A stretch of 64,000 nt of DNA, from positions 106,268,001 to 106,332,000 of the forward strand of contig NC_092346.1 in the NCBI RefSeq assembly GCF_963676685.1. The letters are read 5' to 3'. The position numbers and the translations under genes are program-made. The stretch is from Mytilus edulis (Eukaryota). The notes under the pieces are model-generated. The model was not told where the DNA came from, did no database searches, and worked only from the letters and a program-made list of their open reading frames with translations. Shown in pieces: positions 4,160 through 60,100 of this stretch (position 1 is the stretch's first letter; each line of letters begins with the position of its first letter).

Positions 4160-4287
4160 CTAATGTTGAATTCATCATCCGATTTATCATTGTGGTGTTA
4201 AATTCTGGACATTTCCACTTCTCAAAGTCTGTCAGAGCCAACATAGGAACTATGTAAGCAAAAGCTGGACACTGGACTATTGGTAGT
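4160..4287 (-). CDS. SLC23 exon (LPIVQCPAFAYIVPMLAL...KWKCP...)
   Basis: RLPIVQ-x-x-x-FA motif and W-x-CP; ttttag acceptor. The donor G|gtagtt at 4159 is uncertain; an alternative AG|gtaaaa lies near 4080. The gene continues off the left edge. Confidence 0.85.
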
Positions 4288-5361
4288 CTAAAATACACAT
4301 GCCTTATTAATTATTATTACTGGACACTGGACTATTGGTAGTCTGAAATGCACATGTCTTATTAATGAGTATTACTGGACACTGGACTATTGGTAGTCTG
4401 AAATACACATGCCTTATTAATTAGTATTACTGGACACTGGACTATTGGTAGTCTGGAATAAACATGTCTTATTAATTAGTATTACTGGACACTGGACTAT
4501 TGGTAGTCTGAAATACACATGCCTTATTAATTATTATTACTGGACACTGGACTATTGGTAGTCTGAAATACACATGCCTTATTAATTATTATTACTGGAC
4601 ACTGGACTATTGGTAGTCTGAAATAAACATGTCTTATTAATTAGTATTACTGGACACTGGACTATTGGTAGTCTGAAATACACATGCCTTATTAATTATT
4701 ATTACTGGACACTGGACTATTGGTAGTCTGAAATACACACGCCTTATTAATTATTATTACTGCACACTGGACTATTGGTAGTCTGAAATACACATGCCTT
4801 ATTAATTATTATTACTGGACACTGGACTATTGGTAGTCTGAAATACACATGCCTTATTAATTATTATTACTGGACACTGGACTATTGGTAGTCTGAAATA
4901 AACATGTCTTATTAATTAGTATTACTGGACACTGGACTATTGGAAGTCTGAAATACACATGCCTTATTAAATTATTATTACTGGACACTGGACTATTACT
5001 AGTCTGAAATACACATGCCTTATTAATTACTGGACACTGGACTATTGGTAGTCTGAAATACACATGCCTTATTAATTATTATTACTGGACACTGGACTAT
5101 TGGTAGTCTGAAATACACATGCCTTATTAATTATTATTACTGGACACTGGACTGTTGGTAGTCTGAAATACACATGCTTTATTAATTATTATTACTGGAC
5201 ACTGGACTATTGGTAGTCAGAAATACACATGCCTTATTAATTATTATTACTGGACACTGGACTATTGGTAGTCTGAAATGCACATGCCTTATTAATTATT
5301 ATTACTGGACACTGGACTATTGGTAGTCTGAAATACACATGCCTTATTAATTATTATTACT
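4266..5361 (-). repeat. 55-bp minisatellite, about 20 copies: 3' splice site + first 22 nt of SLC23 exon
   Basis: Minus-strand unit gtaataataattaataaggcatgtgtatttcag|ACTACCAATAGTCCAGTGTCCA. Confidence 0.95.
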
Positions 5362-6179
5362 GTATACTCTATATTAGTCTGATGTTATACAAAAATAAAG
5401 CATGGGAAAGGGACAGTGTTTGTATTTATCATGCAACAGACAGGGAACAATACCATTATTCAATTGTTGGCAGTTATATCACTCCAATTGACTTAATTTA
5501 TTAACAGGCCTTGGTCATTTTACACATCACAAAGCCAACCTGATATAAAGAAGATAGATAGCAATTCACGTCTCATGATAAATGATCTTAGTGTCAAATA
5601 ATTATGGTTTTAACTTATAGTATATTTAATTATCAATAATTTTGTGTATTTTCAGATTATCCATATATGAGCTGTGTAGGCAAAAAGTTTCAAATTTTGC
5701 ATTGCCTTTTTTCCAAGTAATCATTGTTACCGGAAACAACTCGTGTATCTAGTTTTCAACATTTCAAGTCATATAGGTCTAGAAAGGTGGCACCAGGTAA
5801 TTATTAAACTATGCCGTTATCGATAATTTATTTTTCATCTTATCAAGGCCTTTTTCTATAAGCTAAACATAAAAACACCGTAATTCCAAAACAATGAAAT
5901 TCTGAAAATGATTTGATTGCCACGAGTCATACCCGTTTAACAGTTGTAGTGACTAACTTCTCGAACTAGGGCTTTTTATGACTAGTTAACATGGTATCAT
6001 GTTTTATGTACGTCAATGTATTTTCCTTGTCTCTTGTAATGTACATTATTACCAACATGGCGTTGTCTGTTTATTTTCGATTTTTTGACTGTCCCTCGGG
6101 TATCGTTCGTCCCTCTTTTATAGAGTAGTTGATAAATCATGTTACAAATGAGGATAACAATTGATCTTTATATATAAAA

Positions 6180-7869: not shown

Positions 7870-8862
7870 ATCCACGTTGGAGAGTCCACATTACCTGTCA
7901 GGTTGGGGTACTACAGTTTACATTACCTATACAGCTTGAAGTACTGACGTGATTCACAGTTGAGAGTCCACATTACCTGTAAAGCTAGTATTACTGTAGT
8001 AATCCGTGGTAGGCATACCACGTCACCTGTAAAGCTAGTAGTACTGTAGTAATCCGTGGTAGGCAGACCATATTACATGTAAAGCTTGTATTACTGTAGT
8101 AATTCGTGGAAGGCAGACCAAATTACCTGTAAAGCTAGTAGTACTGTAGTAATCCGTGGTAGGCAGACCATATTACATATAAAGCTTGAAGTAATGTAGT
8201 AATTCGCGATGGGGTGTCCATATTACATGTAAAGCTTGAAGTACTGAAGTGATCCGCGGTGGTGTGTCCATATTACATGCAAAGCTTGAAGTACTGAAGT
8301 GATCCGTGGTGGGGTGTTCATATTACATGTATAGCATGAGGTACTGTAGTAATCCACGGTGGGGTGTTCATATTACATGTAAAGCTTGAAATACTGTAAT
8401 AATCCCCGGTGGGGGTCCATATTATATGTAAAGTTTGAATTACTGTAGTGATCCGCGATGGGGTGTCCATATTACCTGTAAAGCTTGAAGTACTGTAGGA
8501 ATCCACGATGGGGTGTCCATATTACATGTGAAGCTTGAAGTACTGTAGTGAACCACGATGGGGAGTCTGCATTACCCGTAAAGCTAGAAGTACTGTAGCG
8601 ATTCACAGTAGATAGTCTGCATTACCTGTAGAACTGGTAGTACTGTAGTTATATACGATAGAGATTCCACATTACCAATAGAACTAGTAGTATGGTAGCT
8701 ATCCACAGAATGGAGTCAACATTACCTATAAAACTGGTAGTATGGTAGTTATCCATGGTAGGGAGAACACATAACCTTGAGAACTAGTAGTATTTTAGAT
8801 TTACACGATAAGGAGTCAACATTACCTGTACAGCTAGTAGTATAGTAGTTATCCACGGTGGG
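7870..8862 (-). repeat. Diverged ~50-bp minisatellite, about 20 copies: SLC23 exon end + donor
   Basis: Units resemble CCCACCGTGGATAACTACTATACTACTAGCTGTACAG|gtaatgttgac. Confidence 0.88.
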
Positions 8863-9331: not shown

Positions 9332-12300
9332 TTTTTTTTTTTTTTTTTTAAATTGATACTTGTTTATTCCAAATATTTCCTGTTTACAATTTCCTCAGTT
9401 GCCCAGGATGCAAACTGTGGATTCCCGTTTACATTTAAGCCAACTGTCCGGGAAGCAGGAGGTTGAAAAATGTGCACTATATTATCCGAAAAAAATAGTA
9501 TACATGTAATAATACTTATATTCTTTTATATGACAATGAGTGAAAAAGGAATATCTTTATAGAATGTACTACTAGTGGTAAATAATATAACATTATAAAA
9601 ACATAAACGAGTGCACCTATAAACCAGATTCACATAATATTTTAACATAATCGAGTGCATCTTTAAACCATGGATTACCGTAATCAATATAAATTAAAGA
9701 GATATAAAAAAAACAGACAACATGACTGCTATCTCCTGCAAGGTATGTACTTATAGTATGAAATTAATTAATGTGTTTATTTTCTCTTTGTCTAATGTAT
9801 TAATTGATAAGTAACAGGGTACAGATTTCAGATGTGTTACCATGTATGATTTCCAAAGATTTAAAATATATGTCGAGGACATTTTTATCCCATCATATTT
9901 AATTTTGTTTCTTATTTTCCACACGGACCATTTTGTCAAAATAAAAAATAGATTTACAAGTAAATTTTGGTTCGAGTGACCACTGCTATCTCCCAAAAGC
10001 ATAAACTGTTTTAAATTATCATCATCTAATTGAATATTCCATAATGTAAAAATATCTTTGATTTTACTAATGATTAATTTTGTTGTATTGCAATCGAAAA
10101 ATAAATGTTGCAGATTTTCAGTATTATTTACAGTTTGGCAAATATGACATTTTCCGTTTGACAATTGCATTTTTTTAAGTCTACTTTCCGTATATATGAT
10201 ATTGTGAATGCATTTCCATTGAAATTCTTTTATTTTATTGGTGATTTTAACTTTTTTCAAATTGCCCCATACTATTTTCCAATTAATTTCGTGGCCATAA
10301 AATTCTTGCCATTTAAGTTGACATTTTGGATATATATTCTTATTAATCATGTCTCGAATATATTTTAGTTTTAATTCTTTTGGTTTGATTGTTTTCCCAG
10401 ATCTGTCTAATATAACCATTTCATTAGAAAGTTTCATTTCTATGTTTGGTTTCTTATTAATTTCATTATCAATTTCTAATATTTGTAAGAAGTCAATTGG
10501 TATTGCACTTTTAATTCTTGAAAATTCCGATATGCAGTTTCTTTTATCTACAAGTTTTTCAAATATAGAACAACAACTGTTAAATTTGTTGGTTTCTACA
10601 TTCCATATGTCTTTGATATATTTCATGTTACTATTTAGAAAGGAAGAAAAAAACAATGGATTATTTTGAAATGAAATTTTTGAATTACCAAATAGTCTCA
10701 TATTAAGTACCTCGTTCTTAGTTTTGGGATTATCTCCAATTTTTAGAAAATTAGACCATGTAAAAATCATTTTCTGATAAAATAAAGGAATATTTTTAAT
10801 ATTTAGTCCTTTAATATTTGAACATTTACATAAAAAATACTGATCATTATACTTGTTGTCAAAGTGTCGAAGCCAATACTTGCCAATCGCATTCCAGCTT
10901 TCTAATGGTTCATGGAGAATGCGATAAAGAGACTTTATTTGTTTACTTCTAATGAATAAGTCTATACTAATCATGCCCATTCCGCCCTTTGTTATATCAA
11001 GACAACAAACCTGTCTTTCTATTTGGTTAACTTTCCCATCCCATATAAAATTCCAAATAATATTGTTTATTTCTTTTGAATATTTTTCAAGAATTCCCCG
11101 CATTTCAATTTCATAACTACACATGGGCAATATGAAATTTTTTACAATTAAGGTTTTACCACTAAATGAAAGTTTCCTGCTTTTCCAAACGTGGACACAG
11201 TTTTTAATCTTTTCTATTATACTTTGCCATATAGCATCATTATCAATTTCATATCCGTGATTTACTCCGAGGGTTTTTACACTACCTGTGATCCATTTAA
11301 TTTTATTAAATTTTAGTTTTTTCCTTTTAAGAGATCCTATAAGTAAACCTTTGGTTTTATCAAAATTAATTTTAGATCCCGAAGCTTTTTCGTATAGCGT
11401 TAGGACATCAAAAGATTTTTCTACTGATTTCTCATTTTTGTTAAAAAGCTGAGTGTCATCAGCAAACATGCATAATTTAGTTTCTATACTTTTACCCCCC
11501 TCACCAGGTATTTGAATCCCTTCAATTTCCTTGTTACCTCGTATTGCACATGCCATTGGTTCCGCTTGCAAAATATATATAAGGGGTGCTATTGGACAGC
11601 CCTGTCTGGCCGAACGTGTTATCGAAAAATATTTTGAAACATGTCCATTTGTTTTTATACAAGTAATAGCATCATAGAGTAACATTTTTATCCATTGTCT
11701 AAATTTCCCCCCAAAATTAAACTTTTCTAATACAAAATCCACCCATTCCCATTCAACTCTATCAAAAGCTTTTTGTTGATCAAGAAATATTATTATTCCA
11801 TCTTCATCTTCGTTGTCAATATAGTCTATTATATCTTGAATTAATCTGTTAGCATCACTAATGTTTCTTCCTTTTACAAACCCTTTTTGATCTGAATGTA
11901 TTATTTTTGGTAAGACTTTTTTCAGTCTCATTGCAAGAAGTTTTGCTATGATTTTGTAATCGGTGTTAAGTAATGTAAGAGGTCTCCAATTTTTAATATT
12001 TTCCCTTTCACCACCCTTATGTAATAACGTAAGAACCCCTTTATGTTGTGATTTACTTAAGACATTTTTATCAAATATTTCTTGAAGGAGTGTGAAAAAA
12101 TCATTTTTTATTATATCCCAATACAGTATGTAAAATTCAGATATAATGCCATCCTCACCTGGTGATTTGTTAGTCTTGAGATCTTTGAGCACTTTTTCTA
12201 ATTCTTCCATATTTATATTACTATCAAGCATCTCCTTATCGTCCGAACTTACCTTATTTTCAATAAATTGGCAAAGCTTTTCACCGCTATTTTTGTCCCA

Positions 12301-14257
12301 CCCTTCAGCCGTAAAAAGTGTGGAATAGAAATTTACTTGTTCTTTTAATATCGAATCAATATCATATTTATACTCACCCGTTTTTGTTTTTATACGATTC
12401 CATAACTTGTTTTGGCCATTTTTCTTTTCTAAACTAAAAAAATATTTCGTTGATTTTTCACCTTCTTCTGACCATTTAATTTTTGCCCTAATTTTCGCAG
12501 ATTCTGTAAAATTTGTATAAATATCCTTAATTTCGCTTTCAATTTCGGTTATTCTAGAATTGGTGATACTTGTTTTTTCCTCTACTAATTTTAATCCTTC
12601 GAGTTGTTTTTCAAGTTTTTTAATGTGATTGTTATTATATACTCGATTTAGTGTTTTACTTACATCAATTGTTAGAAATTTTATTTTACTTTTGGTAATA
12701 TCCCACCATTCTTGTATATCATTATATTTGTCTTTACTATTTTTCCATCCTTCCCAAAAGATTTTAAAAGCATTTGAAAACTGCTCAGATTTAATTGTAT
12801 TTAAGTTCATAATCCACATACCCGGCCCTCTTTCTATATCATCTAACTTAATTTTTGATGTAACTATTTCGTGATCACTAAATGGGAAATGAGATATACG
12901 AGTGTTAAATATTTTACTATTCAAAGATTTGCTGCAGAAAATAAAATCTATACGAGACTTAGAGTTTCCTCTCTGAAACGTATAACGTTTTGTATCTGGA
13001 AATCGAGATCTCCATATATCATCTAATTCATATCTCAATAAAAGATTTTTTAATTCAATTGTACCGACGTCATTATTTTGATGTGATGGCATTCTGTCTA
13101 TTTTTTTGTCTAAAGTACAATTAAAGTCTCCTAATAATACGGTGTAGTGTTCAACGCTATCATCGTCATACACTTTATTTAAGTTGCGCAAATTTTCGTA
13201 AAAAGTCTTTCTATCGGAACCGTTGTTCGGTGTATATACATTAATAATATGATATACAGCATTATCTTTTTTTATGTCACACATTTGACATCTTCCGTTT
13301 TCATCGTGATTTATAAAAGTTACATTTTCGGAAAAAATCTTTTGCAAAAGGAATCCCACTCCCCTTGAATCAGAAGTTCCGCAATTCCAAACTGATTCCC
13401 CTCCCCCAAATTTTTTCCAGTCATTACCCCAGTTATCAATATCAGATTTTGAACAATGTGTTTCTTGAAGACAAATAATATCGAACTTTTTTAAAACTAA
13501 CCAATTAAAAATCATATCTCGTTTTTTATTGTTTCGTAAACCATTTACGTTTATAGAAGCAATTGACAAAGACATATTAAGATCGAATAGTTTTTTGTTT
13601 CTTTCTTTCGTCATTTAAATGTTTCACTTGAATGCTTTGAACCTGATTATATCTATTTGGAACAATAAACTTAACGGATCGGTTATGTGTATACCTTTGT
13701 GTAAACAAATCAGGTAAAACTTTAATCATAAAGCGTCGTTTAAAAACCGTATAAGGTGTAATAAACAGATACTCATTCATGTTCTCATCATATAACAATA
13801 CTAAGCGTCGTTTAAAAACCGTAAAAGGTATAATAAACAGATACTTATTCATCTTCTCAATATTTAACAATACAGTTTGGTATAGCTTAGCAATGTTTGC
13901 ACTTTTTGCAATATATACATATAGGCATATAAACGAATTATTTTTAAATAACATATACATACGAAAAATATGTTTAAAAAAGTGGACATAATATTTACAG
14001 TGATACATTTGTGTTTTTTGTTTGTTTTTGTTTGTTTTTTTTTTTTTAAATATTTGTTTTTTAACATTAAAATCAGATTAAGTAGTCAGAGTGTTTATTC
14101 ACATGGGTTTAATCATGATCTATTCCTGTCTCTTTTCTTGATACTTTGGATGTCCGGTCTGCAGATGTTGGAGTAGTTTTGTCACTTCTGTTGCGTTTTC
14201 GATCAATCGGAGTGTTTGATACGACGACGTTTGTGTTTGGGCTATTTAGAAACAGAA
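9332..14257 (-). mobile_element. L1/Tx1-clade non-LTR retrotransposon, 5'-truncated within ORF1, ORF2 intact
   Basis: TSD tgcagcagaagtt at 9319-9331 and 14258-14270; poly(A) tail (T run to about 9349) after AATAAA; ORF1 C-terminal remnant at 14109-14257. Confidence 0.93.
9751..13614 (-). CDS. LINE ORF2: APE endonuclease + reverse transcriptase + C-terminal CCHC zinc knuckle
   Basis: SINVNG, CLQETH, LGDFN, SRIDF and SDH (APE); KSPGEDG, NWRPLTLLN, KAFDRV, RQGCP and FADD (RT); CHIC...HLFFDC. Likely start is MSLSIASINVNG at about 13578. Confidence 0.95.
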   Translation of the reverse strand: MTKERNKKLFDLNMSLSIASINVNGLRNNKKRDMIFNWLVLKKFDIICLQETHCSKSDIDNWGNDWKKFGGGESVWNCGTSDSRGVGFLLQKIFSENVTFINHDENGRCQMCDIKKDNAVYHIINVYTPNNGSDRKTFYENLRNLNKVYDDDSVEHYTVLLGDFNCTLDKKIDRMPSHQNNDVGTIELKNLLLRYELDDIWRSRFPDTKRYTFQRGNSKSRIDFIFCSKSLNSKIFNTRISHFPFSDHEIVTSKIKLDDIERGPGMWIMNLNTIKSEQFSNAFKIFWEGWKNSKDKYNDIQEWWDITKSKIKFLTIDVSKTLNRVYNNNHIKKLEKQLEGLKLVEEKTSITNSRITEIESEIKDIYTNFTESAKIRAKIKWSEEGEKSTKYFFSLEKKNGQNKLWNRIKTKTGEYKYDIDSILKEQVNFYSTLFTAEGWDKNSGEKLCQFIENKVSSDDKEMLDSNINMEELEKVLKDLKTNKSPGEDGIISEFYILYWDIIKNDFFTLLQEIFDKNVLSKSQHKGVLTLLHKGGERENIKNWRPLTLLNTDYKIIAKLLAMRLKKVLPKIIHSDQKGFVKGRNISDANRLIQDIIDYIDNEDEDGIIIFLDQQKAFDRVEWEWVDFVLEKFNFGGKFRQWIKMLLYDAITCIKTNGHVSKYFSITRSARQGCPIAPLIYILQAEPMACAIRGNKEIEGIQIPGEGGKSIETKLCMFADDTQLFNKNEKSVEKSFDVLTLYEKASGSKINFDKTKGLLIGSLKRKKLKFNKIKWITGSVKTLGVNHGYEIDNDAIWQSIIEKIKNCVHVWKSRKLSFSGKTLIVKNFILPMCSYEIEMRGILEKYSKEINNIIWNFIWDGKVNQIERQVCCLDITKGGMGMISIDLFIRSKQIKSLYRILHEPLESWNAIGKYWLRHFDNKYNDQYFLCKCSNIKGLNIKNIPLFYQKMIFTWSNFLKIGDNPKTKNEVLNMRLFGNSKISFQNNPLFFSSFLNSNMKYIKDIWNVETNKFNSCCSIFEKLVDKRNCISEFSRIKSAIPIDFLQILEIDNEINKKPNIEMKLSNEMVILDRSGKTIKPKELKLKYIRDMINKNIYPKCQLKWQEFYGHEINWKIVWGNLKKVKITNKIKEFQWKCIHNIIYTESRLKKMQLSNGKCHICQTVNNTENLQHLFFDCNTTKLIISKIKDIFTLWNIQLDDDNLKQFMLLGDSSGHSNQNLLVNLFFILTKWSVWKIRNKIKYDGIKMSSTYILNLWKSYMVTHLKSVPCYLSINTLDKEKINTLINFIL

Positions 14258-24048: not shown

Positions 24049-24132
24049 TTAGCTACTGAGAGCTTGATGTAATGTTTGTTGCTGTTCTGCAGACAAAAGG
24101 GGGATACAGGCCTGGAATACTGCTGGATTTTG
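24049..24132 (-). CDS. IPO5: IPO5 exon 26, terminal coding part ([27 protein letters not shown])
   Basis: tttgcag acceptor, phase 0, TAA stop. Confidence 0.9.
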   Translation of the reverse strand, partial: QNPAVFQACIPLLSAEQQQTLHQALSS

Positions 24133-27100
24133 CTGCAAAATAATGTTGTGCCATTAATGAAAGAACAATTATTTTACTGTAACACAAATATTTGTTGTAG
24201 TATTGTTAATTCAATTTATTGGGAGGTTTTTATTTAAGCGAATAGTGCGACAGGTTGAGTATTGTAATGATTAGAACTAGCATTGTGATATCTTATGTAT
24301 ATATCTGTAAACAGCGTTTATTTAAATCACAATAATTAATCTTTAATTTTTGTTCATTCTTCATAATTGGAAATAATAAATGCACACATTAAATTCTGAA
24401 TTAGCAGTATATATTTTTTCGGCTATTTGTATTTATCGGTTAACAAAACTCACCTCTACTTGTCTGACTATATTAAACATTCTTGTGTAAACATTGGACT
24501 CACCTCTACTTGTCTGACTATATTGAGCATTCTTGTGTAATAACATTGGACTCACCTCTACTTGTCTGACTATATTAAGCATTCTTGTGTAAACATTGGA
24601 CTCATCTCTACTTGTCTGACTATATTAAGCATTCTTGTGTAAACATTGTACTCACCTCTACTTGTCTGACTATATTAAGCATCCTTGTGTAAACATTGGA
24701 CTCACCTCTACTTGTCTGACTATATTAAGCATTCTTGTGTAAACATTGGACTCACCTCTACTTGTCAGACTATATTAAGCATCCTTGTGTAAACATTGGA
24801 CTCATCTCTACTTGTCTGACTATATTAAGCATTCTTGTGTAAACATTGGACTCACCTCTACTTGTCTGACTATATTAAGCATTCTTGTGTAAACATTTGA
24901 CTCATCTCTACTTGTCTGACTATATTAAGCATCCTTGTGTAAACATTGGACTCACCTCTACTTGTCTGACTATATTAAGCATTCTTGTGTAAACATTGGA
25001 CTCACCTCTACTTGTCTGACTATATTAAGCATTCTTGTGTAAACATTGGACTCACCTCTACTTGTCTGACTATATTAAGCATTCTTGTGTAAACATTTGA
25101 CTCATCTCTACTTGTCTGACTATATTAAGCATCCTTGTGTAAACATTGGACTCACCTCTACTTGTCTGACTATATTAAGCATTCTTGTGTAAACATTGGA
25201 CTCATCTCTACTTGTCTGACTATATTAAGCATTCTTGTGTAAACATTGGACTCACCTCTACTTGTCTGACTATATTAAGCATTCTTGTGTAAACATTGTA
25301 CTCACCTCTACTTGTCTGACTATATTAAGCATTTTTGTGTAAACATTGGACTCATCTCTACTTGTCTGACTATATTGAGCATTCTTGTGTAAACATTGTA
25401 CTCACCTCTACTTGTCTGACTATATTAAGCATCCTTGTGTAAACATTGTACTCACCTCTACTTGTCTGACTATATTGAGCATTCTTGTGTAAACGTTTGA
25501 CTCACCTCTACTTGTCTGACTATATTAAGCATTCTTGTGTAAACATTGGACTCACCTCTACTTGTCTGACTATATTAAGCATTATTGTGTAAACATTTGA
25601 CTCACCTCTACTTGTCTAACTATATTGAGCATTCTTGTGTAAACATTGGACTCACCTCTACTTGTCTGACTATATTGAGCATTATTGTGTAAACATTTGA
25701 CTCACCTCTACTTGTCTAACTATATTGAGCATTCTTGTGTAAACGTTTGACTCACCTCTACTTGTCTGACTATATTAAGCATTCTTGTGTAAACGTTTGA
25801 CTCACCTCTACTTGCCTGACTATATTAAGCATTCTTGTGTAAACATTGGACTCACCTCTACTTGTCTGACTATATTAAGCATTCTTGTGTAAACATTGTA
25901 CTCACCTCTACTTGTCTGACTATATTAAGCATTCTTGTGTAAACATTTGACTCACCTCTACTTGTCTGACTATATTAAGCATTCTTGTGTAAACATTTGA
26001 CTCTGATGACACTGCCTCCTTTGTAAATGCTTCAGCCACAATACATACAATCTGTGGCAGGTTTACGTGGTTCTCTCCCAGTATCAATGGATGATTACTA
26101 AAATTATCATATAACAGTAATTCATGAAGTTTAAAAAGTTTTTCTATATAGGTATAGGAAGATGTGGTAGGAGTGCCAATGAGACAACTCTGCATCTAAA
26201 TAACAATTTATAAAGTAAACCATTATAGGTCAAGGAACAGCCTTCAACACAGAGCCTTGGCTCACACCCAACAACAAGCTATAAAGAGCCCAATTCTTAG
26301 CTGATCTCTTTCAATTGATGTTTCCTATTTTACCAGAAATGTGTACTGTAACTTACAACAGACTCTGATGAATGGCACCTTAATATATTTATCAGATTAT
26401 ACAGAGATTTCAAACCACATAAAAAGAAAATGTCTGACCTATCATAAAATAGCATCCAATATTTATATTCTGTATTATGAATCTAACATTTCTATCCAAT
26501 CTTAAATTTGATCATTTCTATCCAATATTATAAATCTTATATTTGATCATTTCTATTCTATACTTTATAACTATTCAACTTACATTTCAATAAGGTCACA
26601 GAGATAGTTGTATACTGGTTCTGCTTCATCTTCATCTTCCCAGACAGGTAACCAGGAGAGCCACATGGGTAAAACATCATTAACATTAATCTGACTATTG
26701 TTATGTTGACAAATCTTAGCTATGGCCGAGATAGCATTTTCTGTTGGGTTGGCATTCTCAGGGGACCGTGATTCAGGGTCCTGAATCATCTTTACCAACA
26801 GTGGCAAGGCCTCTACAAATACAATTACCTATGTAACTTGACTCAGGTTTATGAGGCAAAAACAATTATACATATAAGGTTAAGGTTACATCATTAAAAC
26901 AATTATACATATAAGGTTACATCATTAAAACAATTATACATATCAGGGGAAAAAATTAACGGTCGCCCAGTCGCCAATGGCGACCAGAAATTGACCTGGG
27001 CGATCTTTTTATTCAGTTGTGGTAGCCCAGGTGGCGAATGAAAAAAAAGTACTCTAGTGACGAGTAAAATCTACTCGTTGACAAATCAAAGTCGACACTC

Positions 27101-30100
27101 TCACTGGTACCCCTTGATCACAAACTGAACCGTAGATACGTCATCAAAATTTTATCGGGAACCAGTTGTTCAAATTCGGAAATCGTGCCGATATCGGTTT
27201 GCGTTTACAGTTTACATATCCGGATCCATATTTGAAGTAAACAAAAATGTGGAAACATATTCCTGGGGTTAAAGAACCCGAAGTCGCGAAAAGAAAATTG
27301 GACAAGGATTATCAAAAGGAATATGATTCTAAGAAAAGGGCTATTCAAATTTTCAAGAGATTAAAAATTATGTCTGTTCTGTTGTAATGTTTGATGTAGC
27401 TAATTCAAGTTAATAAAATCATACTGACATTGAATTCTTTACTTGTCTTAACAAGATATTTGTACACTTGGCATGAAGATTTACATTTGTAAATGATTTT
27501 TTTTTTATCAAATTTGATTGAAGTCAACTACAAAAACAAGAACAAAATTACATTTTCCCATGCATCCAAATCATCTCCAGGTATGCTCAGAATGCAGGAT
27601 TTTGAGTCTTAGAATTCAAAATTTTCTTGGGGGGGCATGCACCCAAACCCCCCTAGGTGGGCTTCACCGGTGATAGTGGGCTATTAACTTTTTGTCTGGG
27701 CTAATAGATTTTCAAGTCTAGTAGCCCAGCTGGCTACTAATCTAAAAAGTTAATTTTGACCCCTGCATATAAGGTTAAGGTTACATCATTAATTTGGGTA
27801 GGTAGGTTGATGTTTCCATTTAAATTCATTTACTCATTTTATTTTTGTAAAATAATTTGTGTTTGAGTTCTCCATTGGCCAAGTTTTCTAGTATATTTAA
27901 TTATTTCCTTTGGAGATTGGTTGGGGAAAAATGGTGACGAAGTGATTATTTCACCACACAAGTCACAAGTTTCTTAAAACAGCAGTCATATTCAAGAGTT
28001 CAGTTAATTTTTCAATTTACAATTGTGGTGACTTCAGACTGAAGTTGATTCCAATTAATACTTACACCTATGAGTGTAATTGTTTGAAAATCATGACAGT
28101 TGACAAACATACCCACTCTTACTTGCTTAAGAACGAATTCTAGTAAATGAATGAAAAAAAAGTGTGAGAATCAACTTTGATATATCAATACACATCTTGA
28201 CCAAATAACTTTTAAAAATTACAATTTTATTCAATGACACACCAGCATAAGATGCTAATAAAATACTTTCAAAATTCTTATCAACTAAGCAGATTGATGT
28301 ATGTTACATTTTCACAATAATTCATATATAGTAAAAGATTACAAATTTTGATTAACAATTGTATACCTAATGTAAAAGGGTTGTTTGACCTATCTTTTTT
28401 TCATTTAAGGACAAACAAAAGTCAAACTTCCTGACAGTTGATGATTAGAATGGTGCATTAAGTTCCTGCAAGTCATAGAAACACAAAATTAATTTCATGA
28501 CAGGACTTCAACTTACAACTTAGAAACCTCAAAAAAAAAAACAGATTGATCGCATAGATCCAGCATGGCTCAACCAAAAACAGTTTTTGGCAAGTGAAAT
28601 TGTGAAAGGCTAAAACCCTAATTTCAATCAGGTACATCGAAAAAATATTGCCAGCTTGTATAACTTTTAAACACTAGAAATGTTATAGTGCCATAATGAA
28701 TCCCTGTATTTTACCTGCACATGTTGCAGCATACACTTCTCCTCCAAACTTGGCCATTACACCAATACCATAAGCTGAAGCCTGTCTCAGTTCTGGCTGT
28801 TTGTCACTTAGAAAACTCATCATCTGGGCAAGGAAGTACTGGGTGTATTTTACAGAGTGCTGGCAAAACATAAGGAATTAATATAATCAAGTTTTACTAG
28901 ATTTAAAGATGAGGCCAAATAAAAATATATGTGTGGTTGCAGTAACCCTACCGTCCCTACTTTTTGGCTTAAAAATAGCCTACCCTAAAGATTTTATTGT
29001 CATTTTTTCACTAAGCACTATTAAAGTCAGAATGTTGCTCTCATAGACTCAAATGTAAAAAAAAACATAAAATAAAAAAAAATCCCTACCTACCTAACCT
29101 AACTTTTTTTCAGATGTAATTGGAACCACACATACTTTTTTATTTGGCCTGAGTGAAATTGAAAAAGTAAAGATATCAAAAAATGGTTAGAATATAAAAA
29201 AAACATTGCTTCTTGTATTTATATTTATAATGAGTATATCTTATCAAGATAGAATATATCAAACCCTTAGACTAGTGCAGACCCCCTTTCAAGAGGTAAA
29301 CTCTTCATTTGAAATCAGACCCCTTATTGTCAGTAACGATACATATATAGACCCTCAAATCTGCACATATGGTCATTTTAGGCATGAAAAATGTTTAAAT
29401 GAGTGTTTTTCAGTGTGTATTCATGCACAATTACTACTGAGACTGCAGTGTTTGGGGAAAAAGTGGTCTTTTTGAGAATAATTTCAAGCCATTTTTTTTT
29501 CAAATTGGGATTTTTTTCCAGGGGAAAATGCCTTTATTCTCCAGTAATTTAAGGCAAACAATATCTCTGACTAGTCAACAAAGCAAGGAACTTTAGGAAC
29601 CTGGTGATCAGGGGTTCATCTGTAGATGTGGTTCATAAGAGTTATTCGTTTTTTTATGTAGTTTAGGCTGTTGGTTTTTCTGTCACTAGTCATTTTAGAC
29701 CCTTTATAGATTGCTGTTCTGTGTGAGCCAAGGCTCTGTACTTTCACCTATAATGGTTTTATTTACAAATTGGTGGTCTCTCTGGCACTCATACCACATC
29801 TTCTATCTATAAAATGCTGATAAATGATGGCAGTTTAATGTCCGCTGGTGAATAAAATGCATACTCAGCACAAAAACATATTGATACCATATTAATTTGA
29901 ATCTACTTTGTAATAAACTGACTTGACAACCATACCACAATTTCTTTTTTATAACCTTCCTCTATAAAGGCAAGCAAGCTACAAAGAGACCTCCAAGACA
30001 GTGCTTCAGGCTTGCACAAAAAATATTCAACCATAAAAATGGTCTGTATTTTCAGTATCTACTTGGACTAGATGCTATTTCATGGAATGAAAAAGAAGCC

Positions 30101-36100: not shown

Positions 36101-39100
36101 TAGTTTTACTTCACATAATCAATAAGGTTATAAAAATAGATTTATGAGTATCTTTACAACATTGGTTGTTACACTTCGATCTTTTTGGTAATAAGAAGGA
36201 CCGGAGGTATGTAAACTGGTTCCCGGTTGATTACTACACAAAAATCATAATAAAAGCAAATTCCAGTTTAAATGTAAAACAGTAAATACGAAACCAAGAG
36301 CGGTAGACGGAGAAATGTAATGGAAAGTAAATACGAACCAAGCCGGTAGTCAGAGAAATGTAATGGAAGTTCAGTTCACTAGTATAGAAACATGCCGCTG
36401 AAAGCGTCATTTTTCAATAAAACTGCATGCTGAGGCATAAATTAAAATATTGAGCCTTTGATCTCCTTGACTGAACCATGAAAAAATGTTTTCACTTGTA
36501 ATATTTCATACATATTTAAAATGAGACTTTTGAATTTTGAAGCAAATGAGCATGCAAGAACTGTCTTGTACAAAATAAAGACTGTCTAAATTAAAATCGA
36601 CAACATTTGACAAATTTAGGTGGAAATGCATAGAACCAATTTCATTGAGTATGTAAATAAAGGTAATATCTTTGGTTAGCTTGCTTGTTTGCTAGCTGAA
36701 CCGTGAAGTCATTGTTAGGTAAGGTATCCTACCCTCCTTTCAAACCCTAGTCCTACAGACAGATAGATTGCTTGTCTGCTGGACTAGTCTACTCTTAAAG
36801 GAGGGTAGTTTACCTAACCTAACAATGACTTCACGGTTCAGCTAGCAAGCAAGCTAGTCTAACAATGACTTCACGGTTCAGCTAGAAAGCAAGCTAACCA
36901 AAGATATATGACCTTTAGCTTCATACTCGGCTGTAAATGTAGACAGATTATTGTCATATTTCTTTGCTGTGTTTACATACAAAAATACAAATAATTCTGA
37001 TTGTGAAATTAGACTTGACACCTGACAGTGATCAGGGATAGAACACTGATCTAAAGATTGACACCTGACAGTGATCAGGGATAGAACACTGATCTAAGAG
37101 TTGACACCTGACAGTGATCAGGGATAGAACACTGATCTAAGACTTGACACCTGACAGTGATCAGGGATAGAACACTGATCTAAGACTTGACACGTCACAC
37201 TGATCAGGGATAGAACACTGATCTAAGACTTGACACGTCACAGTGATCAGGGATAGAACACTGATCCTTACTCTGAACGTTGATGATAGTTACCTCCTCT
37301 AATAAGTCTTCCTCTAAATCCTCATCATAATCCTCATCTTTCCTCTTTTCTGAAAACATAAATCACTGGATTAAAGATGGATTATTATCATCAACACCTC
37401 TTTCTATTGACATTTATATTTGTAGAATTTATTTACTAAGCAATTTTTCTGTATGATTCTTAACCAATCACTGAAATAAACTATTGATCAACATCAACTA
37501 CGCCTATTTCGAACTCTCTCAACCAGTAATGGTTTCAAAGATAAATATAACAAGGCTCACCATGTCTTTCTTCCTGCTTTTTGAAATGAGTCTGCAGTTG
37601 TTTTTCCAGCAAAGACATAACTAAGTTCATATTCTCTTGGGATAAACACCCTTTTCCCAACTTTTCTATGCACTGAAACACAAGAATTTACTATTAGTAA
37701 ACATCCAAGTGTTGAGTATAAATGAAACCAAAGCATGAATCTACACGTGTTTTCTACACTACCTATGATGTGTACAAGAATATATTTGTTTATAAAATGA
37801 AAATACTTTATTCGACTTGAAACTGCAATTCACTATTTGTAAAAGTAAAACAAGAATGTGTCCAAAGTACACGGATGCCCCACTCGCACTATCATTTTCC
37901 ATGTTCAATGGACCATGACATTGGATAAAAAATATAATTAGGCATTAAAATTAGAAAGATAATATCATAGGGAACATGTGTACTAAGTTACAAGTTGATT
38001 GGACTTCAACTTCATCAAAAACTACCTTGACCAAAAACTTTAACCTGAAACATGCACTTTCATTTTCTATGTTCAGTGGACCGTGAAATTGGGGTCAAAA
38101 GTTTAATTTGGCTTTAAAATTAGAAAGATCATATCATAAGGAACATGTGTACTAAGTATCAAGTTGATTGGACTTCAACTTCATCAAAAACTACCTTGAC
38201 CAAAAACTTTAACCTGAAACATGCACTTTCATTTTCTATGTTCAGTGGACCGTGAAATTGGGGTCAAAAGTTTAATTTGGCTTTAAAATTAGAAAGATCA
38301 TATCATAAGGAACATGTGTACTAAGTTTCAAGTTGATTGGACTTCAACTTCATCAAAAACTACCTTGACCAAAAACTTTAACCTGAAACATGCACTTTCA
38401 TTTTCTATGTTCAGTGGACCGTGAAATTGGGGTCAAAAATTTAATTTGGCTTTAAAATTAGAAAGATCATATCATAAGGAACATGTGTACTAAGTTTCAA
38501 GTTGATTGGACTTCAACTTCATCAAAAACTACCTTGACCAAAAACTTTAACCTGAAGCGGGACAGACGGACGAACGAACAGACGGACGAACGAACAGACA
38601 GACGAACGGACGCACAGACCAGACTATCGTAGGTGGGGCATAAAAACAAGAATGTGTCCAAAGTACAAGGATGCCCCACTCGCATTATCATTTTCAATGT
38701 TCAATGGACTGTGAAATTGGGTAAAAAATCTAATTTGGCCTTAAAAGTAAAAAGATCAACTAATAAGGAACATGTGTACTAAGTTTCAAGTTGATTGGAC
38801 TTTAACTTCATCAAAAACTACCTTGACCTAAAACTTTAACCTGAAACTCACACTTTTAATTTTTATGTTCAGTGGACCATGAAAATAGGGTCAAAAGTCT
38901 AATTTGGTTTAAAAATATGAAAGATCATATCATAAGAAACATTTGTACTAAGTTTCAAGTTGATTGGACTTCAGCTTCATCAAAAACTACCTTGACCAAA
39001 AACTTTAACCTGAAACTGCCACTTTTAATTTTTATGTTCAGTGGACCATGAAAATGGTGTCAGAAGTCTAATTTTGTTTTAAAATAAGAAAGATCATATC

Positions 39101-42100
39101 ATAAGGAACATGTGTACTAAGTTTCAAGTTAATTGGACTTCAGCTTCATCAAAAACTACCTTGACCAAAAACTTTAACCTGAAGTGGGACGAACGGACGG
39201 ACACACAGAGGAACGGAGGCACAGACCAGAAAACATAATGCCCCTCTACTATTGTCGGTGGGGCATAAAAAGAATGTCAGATGTTGTTTCCATTATTATT
39301 ACAGAAGCAAAATTTAATACTTCTTGATTGTTGTTGGTCATCTCAATGAGATTGATTTTCTCGCTTGAGCTGGTATAGAGAAAAGCAATTGAGTTGAGAT
39401 GACCAATGATAATCTGTTTATCGCTATTCTACCTATGAAGACGTTAATTTCATTGACAATGACATGTGCGCTCTTAGTTTCTAGCTATAATTTTTCATAA
39501 CTCTCTAGAGTACTGAGAAGTTCCGATTATCAGGTTTTCTACATATAGCCGCTTCACATAATGTGAAAATTTTTAGCTCTTTCGCTGCACTCATTGTGGC
39601 TCACAGCTGATATTTATGATATCTTTTTGAAGAAAACCGGATTATCTGTTTATCTTTCTATTACTGGTCTTTTCCCTCTTCCTAAGACAGTTTTATACTT
39701 GGCAGAAGCAAGCTTGATTACGTCTCCTCTCGCATTGTGACGTCGCTGATAACTTCTCCTCTCACATTGTGACGTTGCTGATAATGCCTGGTCTCGTTTT
39801 GAGGCCTTGATACAAGAATTGCAGAGCGACAGAGCAGGGTGATATAGGTATAGGGAAGGACAATAAGTAATTTTAGTAACAACTTAGCAGAGTGATATAG
39901 GCAGTGGGATGACCAATAAAAGAAATTATCAGTCAGCAAGATCAAAGGAAAATTTTTGTAAAAATAGCATTACAATTTATTGTCTGGCAAATTCTTACCT
40001 TGGATAAAGCATACAAGTGTTCTGGTAGAACTGACTGTTCAGGTTCTATCTCTATTGCCTTTAACAGACTTGGACAGATATAATTCCACATCTCTGCTAC
40101 ATACTGATCTCCACGAATCTTAGCACAGTCTATTAAGAACGGTAGACTTTCTGAGGCTGCTATTCTAATGTCTTTTTCAAGGTTAAAGAAAATTTTAATG
40201 TCACATTACAGTTGAAACACTGATATATATATACATAATATTAACTTCAAAACAGATAAGTAAAAAAAGAACATTTTAACTATTGATGCAAGAAATAAGA
40301 AATGAAACAGACTTATGAGATGATTTAACATGCCAGTATAAGTATATTGTGTATGATGTCTAACCATGTAACTGGCCAAACAACATTGGTCAACCACAAT
40401 GGCCATATGTTAAAACCATGGAACCCTTATATAATCAGAGAAATGGTCAGATACTATCTAGCAACATAAATGATTTCATCATTAATCAAAATGTAAGGTA
40501 TACATCACTCCATTCCCTTTATTCACTACATCAAGACAAATTCCTTCATTCACTACTTCAAGACAATCTCTTATCTATTTCCTAAATTTACTTACAACTG
40601 TAAGGGATGATACTGGACAAACAACATTGGTCAACACGGGAACACCTATCATGTATGATTTCTGACCATGATACTGGTCATCACTGTATAAAGGATACCA
40701 TCTTCGAAGTAGAACTTTAACAAAGGGACCATTGTCCTGACCACTTCCTCTGCGTACTCAGCAAAACCTTCCTTTAGTTCTCTTGCGTAACACACTAACA
40801 TCTGACATGCTGTTGTTTTCTCTTCTAAACCAGCTGTTCTAATACCAAAACTTTGCTGTAAAACAATGGAACAATATTTAAGAACCTGACAACTGCCTAA
40901 CACACTTAACATTATAAAAATCGGAAGATGTGGTATGATTGCACTAACACAGCTCTCAACTAGAGATTTAATGACAGAAGTTAACATAGGTCAGAATAAC
41001 CTTCATTTGATTTTATTTCATGATAATTGATTAATATGTGTATATTATTTGCAGTGTTTTCACTACAGTGAGAAAGTCATTAGATGGATTGTGCAAAAAG
41101 TTTTACCATAAAACACATGCAGTAGAAAATCCTGTAAAATTTTCAGAGATGTACAGCAATTGAATTATTCTTAACCAGGAAGAAAAATAGAGCAAAATTT
41201 CTATACTTTTCCTTAATCATTTTTATTTAATGTATACACAATGTTTATATCAGTATGTTGCTGATGAAATAAATACTGTACCTGTTCCCCTACATTGACA
41301 AACTCCCAGTCTGTATCACCTTGCATGTCTTACCTGTTCCCCTACATTGACAAACTCCCAGTCTGTATCACCTTGCATGTCTTACCTGTTCCCCTACATT
41401 GACAAACTCCCAGTCTGTATCACCTTGCATGTCTTACCTGTTCCCCTACATTGACAAACTCCCAGTCTGTATCACCTTGCATGTCTCTTATTTCATCACC
41501 TGAAAAAAACAAGTAATAGTTCTTCATCAGAACACTGTGTCTGCTGCTGTAAGTGTACACATTTAATGAAAACCACCAAAAAACGATGTCCAATTCTCAA
41601 ATATTCCATGTAATTTTACGAAAAGGTATAAATGTCTGAAAAACTAAGACTGTTTCTTAATTATGTTAATTTTAACAACAGGAAGAATTAATAATACTAC
41701 AATTTAATAAGTCCATTTATTAGAAAAATGGGGAAGCTCATCACTAACATTTAACTTAATAAAGGAACATAACTCAAGAATGGTAAAAGTGACACAATCC
41801 TAATTCGAACTTGATCTGTGTAGTGTGGTATTAAGCATTATGTTTCATAAAATTTGGTTGAGGCAAAAGTAAAGAGAAGAGAATCTATTTTTGGATGTAC
41901 ATATAGAAAAGGGTAACACTAAATGCTTCCTCAAGTTATTGATGTCTGAAAATCGCTGTTTCCGTTCTCCAATTTTTTTTTTAAAGATAAGTGATATAAC
42001 TTCATTATTGAGATATTTTTTGTTGCACAAAAGTAAAAATACTAGTCTGTGACTACCTAACAACAGGCAATCCCAGATATAGTTCCTTTAAACAAAGTGT

Positions 42101-48100: not shown

Positions 48101-51100
48101 TCTATTTTAATGGGTACTAATGTTCCTTGATTTTTAATTTTGTAGTTTTGTCGAAAAAATGCATACAATCCTTTAAAAAAATTGTTAATTGTTGAACATT
48201 TAATTCTGTGATTAATCTGTATCCACAATATCCCCGAAAATTTGTATCCAAGGAATAATAATGTATCCACAGTATATAAAATCGAAAATCAAGCCTTTTT
48301 ATTTTATGGAATTCTTTCATTCCTTCTATGACTCATATTTATGTTGTGATGTTACACTATTAGGGTAAAGGTTTGGTACCATTAAAATGTTTAAACCTGC
48401 TGCAATTGTTTGTACCTGTCCTAAGTCAGGAATCTGATGTTCAGTAGTTGTCATTTGTTGATGTGGTTCTCAACTGTTTCTTGTTTCTCTTTTTTTATAT
48501 AGATTAGACTGTTGGTTTTCCCATTTGAAAGGTTTTACACAAGTTAATTTTTAGGGCCCTTTATAGCTTGCTGTTCGGTGTGAGCCAAGAATCTTTGTTG
48601 AAGACCGTACTTTGACCTATAAGGGTTTACTTTTATTGAGTGTGACTTAGATGGAGAGTTGTCTCATTTGCACTAATTCCACATCTTCTCAGATATCTAT
48701 TAGAAACAAGTTTTAAATGTCTTCATACAAGGTTAAAACAAATATAATTGTAGGGTCTGGAATGAATATCTTACCCTGTTATGATATTTCTTTTGAAATA
48801 AGGGACCAAAATCTCTACACAGCTGACCAATAGCATTACATCCAGCATATCTAACTCTTGGGTGCTGCAAGAAAAAACAACAATTAACTTTTCAATTGAC
48901 AGAACTTAATTGCATTGTAGCTTTTTTTTTATCATTGTTAGTTAACTCATGGAAGTAATATTTAGAAGGAATAACAACGACTAATTAGCATGTATTTATA
49001 GCATGCTGAGCTCTGTACTAAAGTCATACGATTTCATCCAATTATAGTCTCAGCGGTAAGACGCCTTTGGTTACTATCTGCGTTACCGCGGTTGTAAAAG
49101 GCATCTGGAATTTCTTATCAGTCACATGGTTTTATCGAGTCCGGTAATTATAACGCACCTGTGGGAAATCCCTTGTTTATTAATAACAAGGTAGCGCTGT
49201 ATCACATAGAATATCTACCTTTAGAAAGAAATCGAATGGTGAAAAAAACTTGAAAAAATGGACGAGAATTGTTCAAACTACAGCAGTTTAACATGGAAAA
49301 TTGTATTTAATTTAGCATATTTTTGCTTTTTACCGTTTGTTTTAAACTGTTCTAAAAGTATTTTCCGGTTAAAAGCGGATCCCGAGTTAAACAGTTAAAT
49401 ACCGATGAATCGATCAGGTTTCACATGATGTTTAACAAAATAATGTAGGCAAATGTAGGCATAGATTTTTTTACTGTTGAAATGTGCAAAGTTTATCGAG
49501 ATTGAATGAAATAATATTTACTTTCAAGTATTCTAAATTTATGTATATGTCATAAATGTCATTGATTGCATTATTGAAACTGGACAACTAAAACGGGGAT
49601 AATATTTTCGTAAATATATATTTAAAAAGTGTTAATTGTGGAATGCTTGTACTAATATAATAAGCTATACAGCAAAAAATATAACAAACCGACGAAATGG
49701 GCTTGCATCTATCTGTCTTACGGTAAATTCATTTTTACACAAATTAGTTTATGTATCAAGAACTTAAATTGAAGGATAGAACCGTTTAGAATTGTTAATA
49801 ATTTAATTGACTATAAATACACGAGAGATTTAGATTTTTAGTATTTAATAAAGGGTGTCCAAACATATTTTTTGTACAGTCATCTTCTTAACTTTATACG
49901 GAAATGGTTTTTTAATTGTCTGTAAATTTTAAAATTGAAATGACACAACTTTGTTCTCCAATTTCGTATGTGATAGCTGTCGGTTTTAACTATTAAGTTC
50001 AAACTAACCAAAAATAGGGAAAAATTGGACTAAAATAAAAATTGAACGAATGACTCTTTTCAGCAGCGTACATCAACGGAATGTAACGAATGGACTATTC
50101 GGGTTACTTCGCATGTATATTCGACAAAAACTTGTCTGTTCGTAGTTCTCCGTGAACACGAAAATGACCGATAAGTGTCAGTGATTTGATCGATCACATG
50201 CGGAGAATAAACTTCCATGCCAGATATTGAACCAATTAACGAGTTATTGAAAGATGGGCGGTAACGCAGATGAAACCTTTGAAGTGACGACGATGTTATT
50301 CCTTCCAATATTACTTCCATGGTTAACTCCACAAAAAATAGAAAATTTCAGCATATTCAGACTGTTAGAGGAAAACTTTTTCACAGACAAGATTTTTACA
50401 ATTATACAAAATATGACAAATTACCTTTGTTCTAAATTTTAGTTATTAACTTTTTTTTCCAAAGAAAATTGCTTATAAAAACAGAATCCCTTTACTTGAA
50501 ATGTATGAGTGTAATAAAAGTTTGTTTCACACATATAACTTACTGGATCTTTAAGGAATGGTAAAACAGCATCCAGTATATTATTAAGCATTCCTTCCAT
50601 CTGCTGGTGACAACCTTCAGCACAGGCAGAAATAGCCATCAATGCAGCATGTCTATATCTCCAGTCACCTGTCAAAATAAAGTAAATCTATCAGTCTCCG
50701 ATCACATGTCAAAATTAACATAAAACCTATGGAATTCCAGTCACATATTAAAATTAACATAAAACCTGTGGGATTCCTGTCAAAAATCTGTGGTATGTTT
50801 GCTAGGATATGTGGTAATTTACCATTCTGTAAAATCTGTGGTATGTTTGCTAGAATATGTGGTAACTTACCATTCTGTAAAATCTGTGGTATGTTTGCTA
50901 GGATATTTGGTAACTTACTATTCTGTAACATCTGTGGTATGTTTGCTAGGATATTTGGCAGCCTAGCTTTCACATTGTAAACTTACCATTCTGTAACATC
51001 TGTGGTATGTTTGCTAGGATATGTGGAAGCATCGTTTTGCCACCTAAGGCACAAGCCAGTCTATCTAGGGCACTTTCAGCTGCTATACTATTGCTATAAA

Positions 51101-57100: not shown

Positions 57101-60100
57101 TTCAATCTTTCAAGAACCATAACTCCTGAACGGTAAAAGTCAAAATCGCCATTATTGAACTTGACCTTCATTTAGTTGTCAGTAACAACATATTAAAATT
57201 TTAAAAGCTTTGGTTGAATGGTTCATGAGTTAATGCACGGACAACATTTGATTGCCGCCCGCCCAATCATATTTCTAGCCAATTCTGCTGTTGCATCACA
57301 CACCTTTCGTCTAACAGGGGGTTAAACTTACCGATCATATTTCTCTCCAATTTTGCTGTTGCATCACACACCTTTCGTCTGACAGGGGGAGATAACCTTT
57401 ACAGTAGAAACTTACCAATCATATTTCTCGCCAATTCTGCTGTTGCATCACACACCTTTCGTCTGACAGGGGGAGATAACCTTTACAGTAGAAACTTACC
57501 AATCATATTTCTCGCCAATTCTGCTGTTGCATCACACACCTTCCGTCTGACAGGGGGAGTTAACTCTTCTGTTATAGCAGACATTAATTTTTCTTTCACA
57601 GCTGCTTGAAGTTCTGGTGACAGTTTTGGCCATACTTCTTCAAATTCATTTGTAAATAATCTTCTTAATAAAACAGATGACAGTGTTCTTATCTGTAAAA
57701 GAAATTATAATTATATACTCAAACAAGAATGTGTCCACGGATGCCCCACTCGCACTATCATTTTCTATGTTCAGTGGATCGTGAAATTGGGGTCAAAATT
57801 ATAATTTGGAATTATAATTAGAAAGATCACATCATAGGGAACATGTGTACTAAGTTTCAAGTTGATGTAACTTTAACTTCATCAAAAACTACCTTGACCA
57901 AAAACTTTAACCTGGACTTCGCACTATCATTTTCTATGTTCAGTTGACCATGAAATTGGGGTCAAAACTATAATTTGGCATTAAAATTAGAAAGATCATA
58001 TCATGGGGAACATGTGTACTAAGTTTCAAGTTGATTGGACTTCAACTTCTTCAAAAACTACCTTGACCAAAAACTTTAACCTGCAGCCAACGGACGGACG
58101 GACGCACAGACGGACGCACAGACGAACAGAGGCACAGACCAGAAAACATAATGCCCCTCTACTATCGTAGGTGGGGCATAAAAAAGCAAAGTCAATTTTA
58201 TTTTTCTCACATGCTTGTTTATCATGCATGTCAGTCTGTCTATTAAGGAAAACCTTGTAAATATCTCTTATAAAATGAAAATTTATGTAAGGAGATGTTG
58301 TGTTAACATGTCAATTAGTTTCCTGAACTAACAATTTTGAACAACAGCACAACCCCTTATCACCAAAAGATATGTACTCGCCTCCATCGATATATTCCTA
58401 CATACTGGACTAACATTGGTAATTAGGTAGAGCCAGCTGGTAGCTTGTCTTATGTACTCACCTCTATAGATATGTTACTATTGGACATAGACTGGACTAA
58501 CATTGGTAATTTTGTAGGGCCCGGTATCTTTTCATATAATCCCTACAAAACAATAAAACAAATTTAAATATAAAGTGTTGTAAAATAATTAATCTACACT
58601 GTTGAACATTGAGGTGCTATATGTCTTGTTTCCGATTTTTTTCTTCTAGCAACTTGTATAGAAGTTTCTACAAATGAAATATCATAATGGACCTGTTATA
58701 TCAGACCCTATATCCAGGGTTCGACACTAACGCTAGCCCGCTAGCCAGAGACTAGTAACTTTAGTGTCGGGCAAGTAAATGTCCATGGCGCGGTAGCCCG
58801 AGGGGCTAGTAAATTTATTTGTCATTGAACATCAATCTGTTGTACTTTCGGCAAAGTACAGTCCAAACGCCGGTCATATCTGACAACTTCTTCGAATATT
58901 GTCTACACTGGTTCCACGACCTCTTTATTTACATACAGATACAGATACTGGAGGGTAAAATTTCTACCATAAACCAGTCGCTATATACAGTCAACTCGGC
59001 CTAAGATTACTCAGCCCATAAAGTAAGAATGCACCACGTTTCAAGATAACCCGTTTTGAAATAAACATTAATTATACTGCATATACATTTTGGTTTTATT
59101 ATATTTTATTATTAATCACATCAGAGATCCTGATAAATAGTGTGCGTAGTTTAGCCTTATCTATTACATAGTCGTCGCGTAAATAGTTTAATTTGGAAAT
59201 GTCCTTTTAGTAACGATAATCATCATGGATCTTTAGTTAAAAACAGGCTCTTGCAGAAAAAGGAAAAGCGATACTGAAGGTAAAGAAGGAATAATTCTAG
59301 TAAACTAGTTTTTTTGGGGGAACAGAGTCTGAGTATTGCATATAACTTCATGAGAACAATCCAAAAACGATAAGTAGACTGACAAATCAAGTACTGGTCT
59401 TCGGAAGGGGGCAGTCCTGTCTGCGTATTCATTTCTCCATTTCACAAACTTTTGACAAATCAAGTACTGGGCAACGCAAGGGGGCAGTCCTATCTGCGTA
59501 TTCATTTCATGAACTTTAATCTTTCTCTATACAGATAAATAAAATATAAATAATATGAAACATGAATGCATAGATTAGTTTTTATCCAGGCCTAAAATAA
59601 AATTTCATTTGTTTGGCATTGCCGCCCGACCCACTGAAAAACTTGCCGCCCAAATAATTTTATTTGCGTTTCAGAAATTTATTTTTTTTTATTTAAAAAA
59701 AAATCGAAATTGTGCCGGAATTTGATCGTATCCGCCGAGTTTGTTCCTGGCTTTACTTATTTCAAATCACGATCTTAAAAGCGCTTGCCTTACACAGTAT
59801 TGGGAGCAAACATTTAAATGACATGGCATAGAAAAAGTTTGCCAAAAGTAATGTCAAGGAGGCCGCAGGGGAAAGCATCAATGCATTGGTTAAGGGAGAT
59901 GGATTTTGTCAAAAATCAAATGTTCAGCTATTCTTTGAAAGAAACGTTCTGAGAGACCTTGTAGAGGACTCAAGTTTTATCTTTTGTAAAGGCTACAAGC
60001 AGAAATAGATGATTTCTGCTTGACTTTGTTGCTTCATGAGATAGAAGTTTTTCACCGGGACATCACAGAACAAATATGCGTGGCTCTTACATTTGTTGAA

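Follow-up and report, generated by a model that had tools for sequence, protein, structure and literature searches.

The last coding intron (the 25th) of the importin-5 gene (IPO5) of Mytilus edulis consists for the most part of tandem copies of the end of the preceding exon together with its 5' splice site. The gene lies in a stretch of 64,000 nt (contig NC_092346.1 of assembly GCF_963676685.1, positions 106,268,001 to 106,332,000 of the forward strand), the whole of which is referred to here as the window and is numbered from its first letter. Considering the observed unit structure, a 4-nt microhomology, a stop codon in the second unit, the near-absence of RNA on units 2 and 3 and the presence of like arrays elsewhere, we regard it as highly probable that a minisatellite was seeded at the exon 25 end and its donor, likely via a microhomology duplication, was likely expanded by repeat turnover, and is likely tolerated through first-donor choice. 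The IPO5 array is most likely neutral, and the locus is a large further case of an already described class of repeat which occurs often in this genome. As a single locus it is unremarkable; of more use is the frequency of such arrays, which were found at approximately 6% of sampled donors and 4% of sampled acceptors.

Structure of the array in IPO5 intron 25

The identity of the gene, as given by the first-pass annotation, was confirmed by a Pfam result, by one exon matching Mytilus IPO5 at 99%, and by a 1093-aa model product with 0 differences from a named M. edulis importin-5 (P0081), this 26-exon model having been built using the matched Mytilus IPO5 protein, with four acceptors moved by 3 nt. 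Features of IPO5 and of the neighbouring gene are collected in Table 1.

Table 1. Positions of gene features and boundary arrays in the window
Feature	Position	Strand	Remark
SLC23-like acceptor array (acceptor plus exon start), 55 bp x 20, 94%	4265..5362	-	Exon resumes past last copy
SLC23-like donor array (exon end plus donor), 50 bp x ~18, 80%, older, decayed	7922..8854	-	Exon boundary judged by eye
IPO5 (importin-5) coding span, 26 coding exons, 1093 aa	24049..63803	-	
Terminal exon 26, coding part	24049..24132	-	QNPAVF...ALSS, then stop
Non-repeated rest of intron 25, 315 nt	24133..24447	-	Acceptor ttgcag at end
50-bp minisatellite, 31 donor-bearing units	24448..26003	-	
Units bearing AT in place of GT (six)	25355, 25205, 25105, 24905, 24805, 24605	-	Position of changed base
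In-frame TAG in unit 2	25920..25922	-	Ends 14 nt short of second donor
Authentic 5' splice site GTGAGT, phase 0	25950..25955	-	
Coding exon 25	25956..26097	-	Repeat master copy: final 44-48 nt
IPO5 exon 16 donor array, 52 bp x 4	41279..41486	-	
IPO5 exon 9 donor array, 4 copies	50783..51022	-	68 bp to second copy, 48 bp thereafter
IPO5 exon 3 donor array, 84 bp x 3	57263..57564	-	

The array was called by TRF at 24448-26003 with a period of 50, 31.1 copies, 95% matches and a score of 2800, at which a chance origin of the 50-bp periodicity is excluded. On the minus strand, 31 donors of the form (G/A)TGAGT run from 25955 down to 24453 in 50 bp steps, with a single step of 52, and the array takes up 1508 nt (83%) of the 1823-nt intron (25955-24133). 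These figures, 30 of the 31 units being extra copies, bear out the earlier description of about 30 copies of a 50-bp unit in roughly 80% of intron 25. That description had also defined the unit as 45 nt of coding sequence plus gtgag, which is one of several equivalent registers (from 48+2 to 44+6 nt of exon and intron), because the breakpoint shares the four nucleotides GAGT, a microhomology which was confirmed, as was the continuation of the intron, GTGAGTTTTGTTAA standing directly after the most distal copy.

The 31 donors comprise 25 GTGAGT and six ATGAGT, so that the GT is intact in 24 of the 30 extra, intronic copies and the donor G is gone in the other six. The first-pass annotation had singled out the same six units, with positions that are 4 nt off. 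All of units 2-12 carry GTGAGT, and none of the changed copies is near the exon, where loss of a donor would matter most. The array therefore has the make-up of a boundary minisatellite, i.e. a head-to-tail unit of 10-160 bp, a first monomer lying over the exon-intron boundary, extra copies that are intronic, and a repeated splicing signal that many copies, though not every one, have kept intact. Intron birth was rejected as an interpretation, since the copies add length to an intron that was already there, without any new acceptor.

The 29 units in register differ by a mean of 2.3 nt in pairwise comparison with no gradient with distance, and shared variants are interspersed across the units, which is the pattern expected from repeat turnover. 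Seeding would have required a single 50-bp tandem duplication at GAGT, after which slippage or unequal exchange may have multiplied and shuffled the units. Paired single-strand breaks are not claimed as the source of the duplication; a literature search on this mechanism gave nothing relevant. The copy number of 31 comes from this one assembly. That the array is an assembly error, or owes much of its length to one, is highly improbable, considering that the units show patterned variants and that a gene model from the assembly of a different species, M. galloprovincialis (P0002), ends by running into a slightly different unit 2. The array is thus not peculiar to the M. edulis assembly.

Another repeat lies in IPO5 intron 24 (26148-26295), where a short interspersed repeat was covered at several hundred-fold RNA depth by reads that continue unlike the window, and it is therefore transcribed from many other loci.

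Use of the first donor in IPO5 mRNA

Four raw RNA runs from two studies (4 of 24 listed) were aligned to positions 25846-28900, a stretch which ends before exon 26, so that the joint of exons 25 and 26 lies outside the coverage. The splice joint 26097-26584 was present in four of four runs. Depth on the exon end (25948-26049) was 6.4, 8.2, 12.3 and 9.0, adding up to approximately 36, against 0, 0, 0.29 and 0 on units 2 and 3 (25846-25947). This bounds the leak to downstream donors at roughly 8-13% (0-1 of ~36) in animals that have fixed differences from the window, e.g. at 26067, and whose array alleles may not match those of the window. Among the Mytilus cluster members that hold the end of exon 25, most of which are gene models, 14 of 15 continue VE/QNPAVF and the remaining one, P0002, reads through. 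It is therefore supported that the authentic, most upstream donor dominates IPO5 mRNA, with the proviso that a leak under roughly 8-13% would escape notice.

Read-through from exon 25 reaches a stop 11 codons into unit 2, as the first-pass annotation had noted, and each of the 30 downstream donors would add an identical 11-residue tail while the last 27 residues of IPO5 are lost. Under the mammalian 50-55 nt rule for transcript decay, products of donor 2 should escape decay, since the stop in unit 2 lies only 14 nt before that donor; products of donors 3 onward could be hidden by decay. Either exon definition or a 5'-to-3' choice of donor, as for human F7, may keep the mRNA normal, and the array would be tolerated because the spliceosome uses the first donor and thereby removes all copies with the intron.

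The proximal-donor choice proposed earlier was described as strict. First-donor use itself is supported by a depth of ~36 versus 0.29 and by the F7 precedent; strictness does not follow, as a leak below 8-13% is invisible and as CBS and 6-16 do leak. A few percent of IPO5 transcripts might splice from the second or third donor or keep the intron, with copy number tuning the amount of truncated importin-5 or of decay substrates. Such regulation would agree with the retention of GTGAGT throughout units 2-12, with the ending of P0002 in unit-2 read-through, with the one read on units 2-3, and with the use of the two nearest pseudo-sites in human CBS and 6-16, as given in the excerpted text of PMC1557585. 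We consider it improbable, since at most that one read stands against a summed depth of ~36, and it comes from run X23, which has reads matching two places in the stretch; P0002 may be a prediction artefact, and none of the 17 proteins inspected contains a reiterated exon-end peptide. Among the points that count against neutral tolerance are the low RNA depth, P0002, which might reflect a real isoform, and a 2.75x donor excess in the genome sample (see below) over a neutral 1.6x.

Another IPO5 gene model, P0072 of M. coruscus, ends by reading through the exon 20 donor, which is another gene-prediction failure in the repeat-rich introns of IPO5.

Boundary arrays in the window and in a genome sample

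Tandem-repeated junctions in IPO5 comprise 4 of 25 donors (exons 3, 9, 16 and 25) and 1 of 25 acceptors, against an intron background of 3.8%; when the focal exon 25 is set aside, 3 of 24 donors are duplicated (p 0.06). The 48 bp steps between the later copies of the exon 9 array preserve the reading frame. Other arrays in IPO5 introns, with units of 39, 43, 47, 34, 161 and 169 bp, repeat no junction in any case. Related tandem units of 161-169 bp occur in two IPO5 introns (37886-39183 and 56468-58083) and are likely a dispersed satellite or a transposon-borne repeat. The neighbouring gene is SLC23-like according to PDB sequence matches, Pfam searches on single exons having given no identity, and holds a young acceptor array and an old donor array together (Table 1). 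Between the SLC23-like exons and IPO5 sits an apparently intact non-LTR retrotransposon (9754-13614, minus strand), with a 1287-aa open frame encoding endonuclease, reverse transcriptase and zf-RVT. Array density was 0.48 per kb in the window versus 0.16 in 40 evenly spaced stretches, a comparison confounded by gene content and by chromosome position, the window lying 0.7 Mb from the end of C3.

The genome sample consisted of 267 exon matches from the myosin, kinesin and kinase families, for which a matrix trained on IPO5 supplied the predicted splice sites. One match lacking flank and two that fall on an unplaced duplicate contig were left out, as were kinase matches that were long or redundant; the top 30 kinase loci (L169-L198), mostly intronless domains, were excluded and 52 short kinase matches substituted. 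Within L181-L195, near-identical intronless kinase domains are arranged head-to-tail, with 10 copies ~1.87 kb apart at G000:C1:44213028-44230434 and 4 copies ~1.77 kb apart at C3:19693088-19698990.

In this sample, the donor was part of the master unit of a tandem duplication at 13 of 216 sites (6.0%, interval 3.6-10.0) and the acceptor at 9 of 235 (3.8%, 2.0-7.1). With GC-matched intron expectations of 4.7 and 4.2, respectively, this represents an enrichment of 2.75x for donors (p 0.001) and 2.2x for acceptors (p 0.025), while 12 of 702 antisense pseudo-donors were duplicated. The rate differs between families (kinesin 9/106, myosin 2/66, kinase 2/44), and kinesins therefore supply much of the donor signal. 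Among strict cases outside the window, 22 of 22 had their copies on the intron side, wrong-side cases amounting to 1 in 451 sites. An annotation-free search for donor motifs near array ends returned 2 of 58 usable arrays in 40 evenly spaced 10-kb stretches, numbers that are too small. One myosin paralog carries 17 copies of a 60-bp unit of exon end plus GTAAGT (L031:141-1123) and its neighbour 2 (L032:992-1111), which implies fast copy-number change.

The over-representation at exon edges probably results mainly from survival, boundary arrays being recognisable for longer because selection removes duplications that fall within exons and maintains the exonic master copy. A neutral simulation in which protection was applied to the exonic master copy only gave an enrichment of 1.3-1.9x, and most of the donor excess therefore requires no function. 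The donor count exceeds a neutral 1.6x (p 0.03-0.04) and does not exceed 2x (p 0.16-0.18).

A mutational bias at donors is allowed by the sample data. Mussel exon ends could be a hotspot for short tandem duplications ending just past the donor, an origin which is compatible with neutrality and which we hold to be possible but doubtful. It is suggested by the excess over the 1.6x model and by a first-unit rate of 5.5-5.9% for 20-mers whose start lies within 40 nt upstream of a donor, compared with ~1% at 20-120 nt into the intron. It is further suggested by the exon-rich lean of the donor units, 12 of 16 being under half intron (median 25%), although this lean weakens to p 0.08-0.10 once detection bias is modelled, acceptor units lack it (5/9), and the splice sites are matrix-predicted and not annotated. 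The fuller proposition, that a hotspot at mussel exon 3' ends makes exon-rich tandem duplications reaching a few bases past the donor at ~6% of all donors, is slightly more doubtful still and is put forward tentatively. If true, a breakpoint bias at donors would tie the start sites of duplications to splicing signals or to exon chromatin, and an exon 3'-end hotspot would provide thousands of natural F7-like loci for studying spliceosome choice among identical donors, as well as test material for the origin of new introns or exon extensions.

A function was also envisaged for the copied donors by the first-pass annotation, namely as a landing strip for U1 snRNP ahead of the terminal exon and long UTR. 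According to the concept of U1 landing or telescripting, the copies would load U1 and guard the last intron from early polyadenylation, or help to define the terminal exon. Some binding of U1 to the 24 extra consensus-like GAG/GTGAGT sites is plausible, and in 11 pooled arrays (110 copies, which are non-independent) mismatches were slightly rarer in the GT (3.6%) than in the exon part (5.7%), with 4.2% at +3 to +5. This pooled test is nevertheless without clear constraint on the copied donors, and in IPO5 the donor G, which six of the 30 copies no longer have, shares first rank in variability among the 30 nt tested. Moreover, like arrays occur at three internal exons (3, 9 and 16), as well as at an acceptor and ~6% of unrelated donors, and nothing therefore ties the array to the terminal exon or the long UTR. 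A U1 landing strip, for which we found no supporting evidence, is accordingly very unlikely, and neutral survival is retained as the preferred account.

Comparison with known boundary minisatellites

Minisatellites whose first monomer lies over a donor have been described in F7, CBS, 6-16, LMNB2 and PDGF, according to the excerpted text of Borensztajn et al. (2006, PMC1557585). In the 37-bp VNTR of human F7 IVS7 the pseudo-sites are functional, yet the most upstream donor wins, as established there by mutagenesis. The F7 and IPO5 arrays share a boundary-spanning first monomer and identical donors repeated in the intron; in the parts of the F7 report drawn on here, the unit has 4 nt of exon and 33 nt of intron in 5-9 copies, whereas that of IPO5 has 44-48 and 2-6 nt in 31 copies, and unlike F7 the IPO5 array fills 83% of the last intron and has six dead donors. 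The human CBS 31-bp VNTR, c.1444_1467+7(16_21), by its name comprises 24 nt of exon and 7 nt of intron in 16-21 copies, and resembles IPO5 in its exon-rich unit and in the scattered substitutions among units, as far as the portion of PMC2630376 consulted describes them. In CBS, two pseudo-sites are spliced in addition to the true donor (PMC1557585, in excerpt), whereas none is evident in IPO5 at low RNA depth. The boundary minisatellites of human 6-16, LMNB2 and PDGF contain 10-25 repeated donors; LMNB2 and PDGF use the authentic donor only, and 6-16 uses its two nearest pseudo-sites constitutively (same excerpt of PMC1557585). With respect to VNTRs that regulate splicing (of the CBS and ABCA7 type, from partial accounts), downstream use at IPO5 amounts to 0-1 reads on units 2-3, at low depth and in ungenotyped RNA.

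In amphioxus (lancelet), the Adh3 and globin genes contain donor or acceptor boundaries copied in tandem; these "mirages" leave splicing undisturbed (Ebner et al. 2010, PMC3087553, in its excerpted text). They resemble the IPO5 array in belonging to a marine invertebrate and in that many but not all copies retain the signal; their length is unstable, and they were suggested to be general in the lancelet lineage (PMC3087553). In the portion of that text available they are described locus by locus with no genome-wide rate, whereas the present data concern a mollusc and a sample in which ~6% of donors and ~4% of acceptors are affected. A literature search, thin on subscription journals, found no genome-wide rate of such arrays in bivalves.

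Arrays of this kind mislead gene prediction, as in P0002, and lengthen introns, and they provide numerous natural settings in which first-donor choice can be tested outside mammals. Good loci for this are three kinesin exons (L141, L116 and L249), whose donor arrays have 21-23 extra copies, all of the detected GTs being intact.
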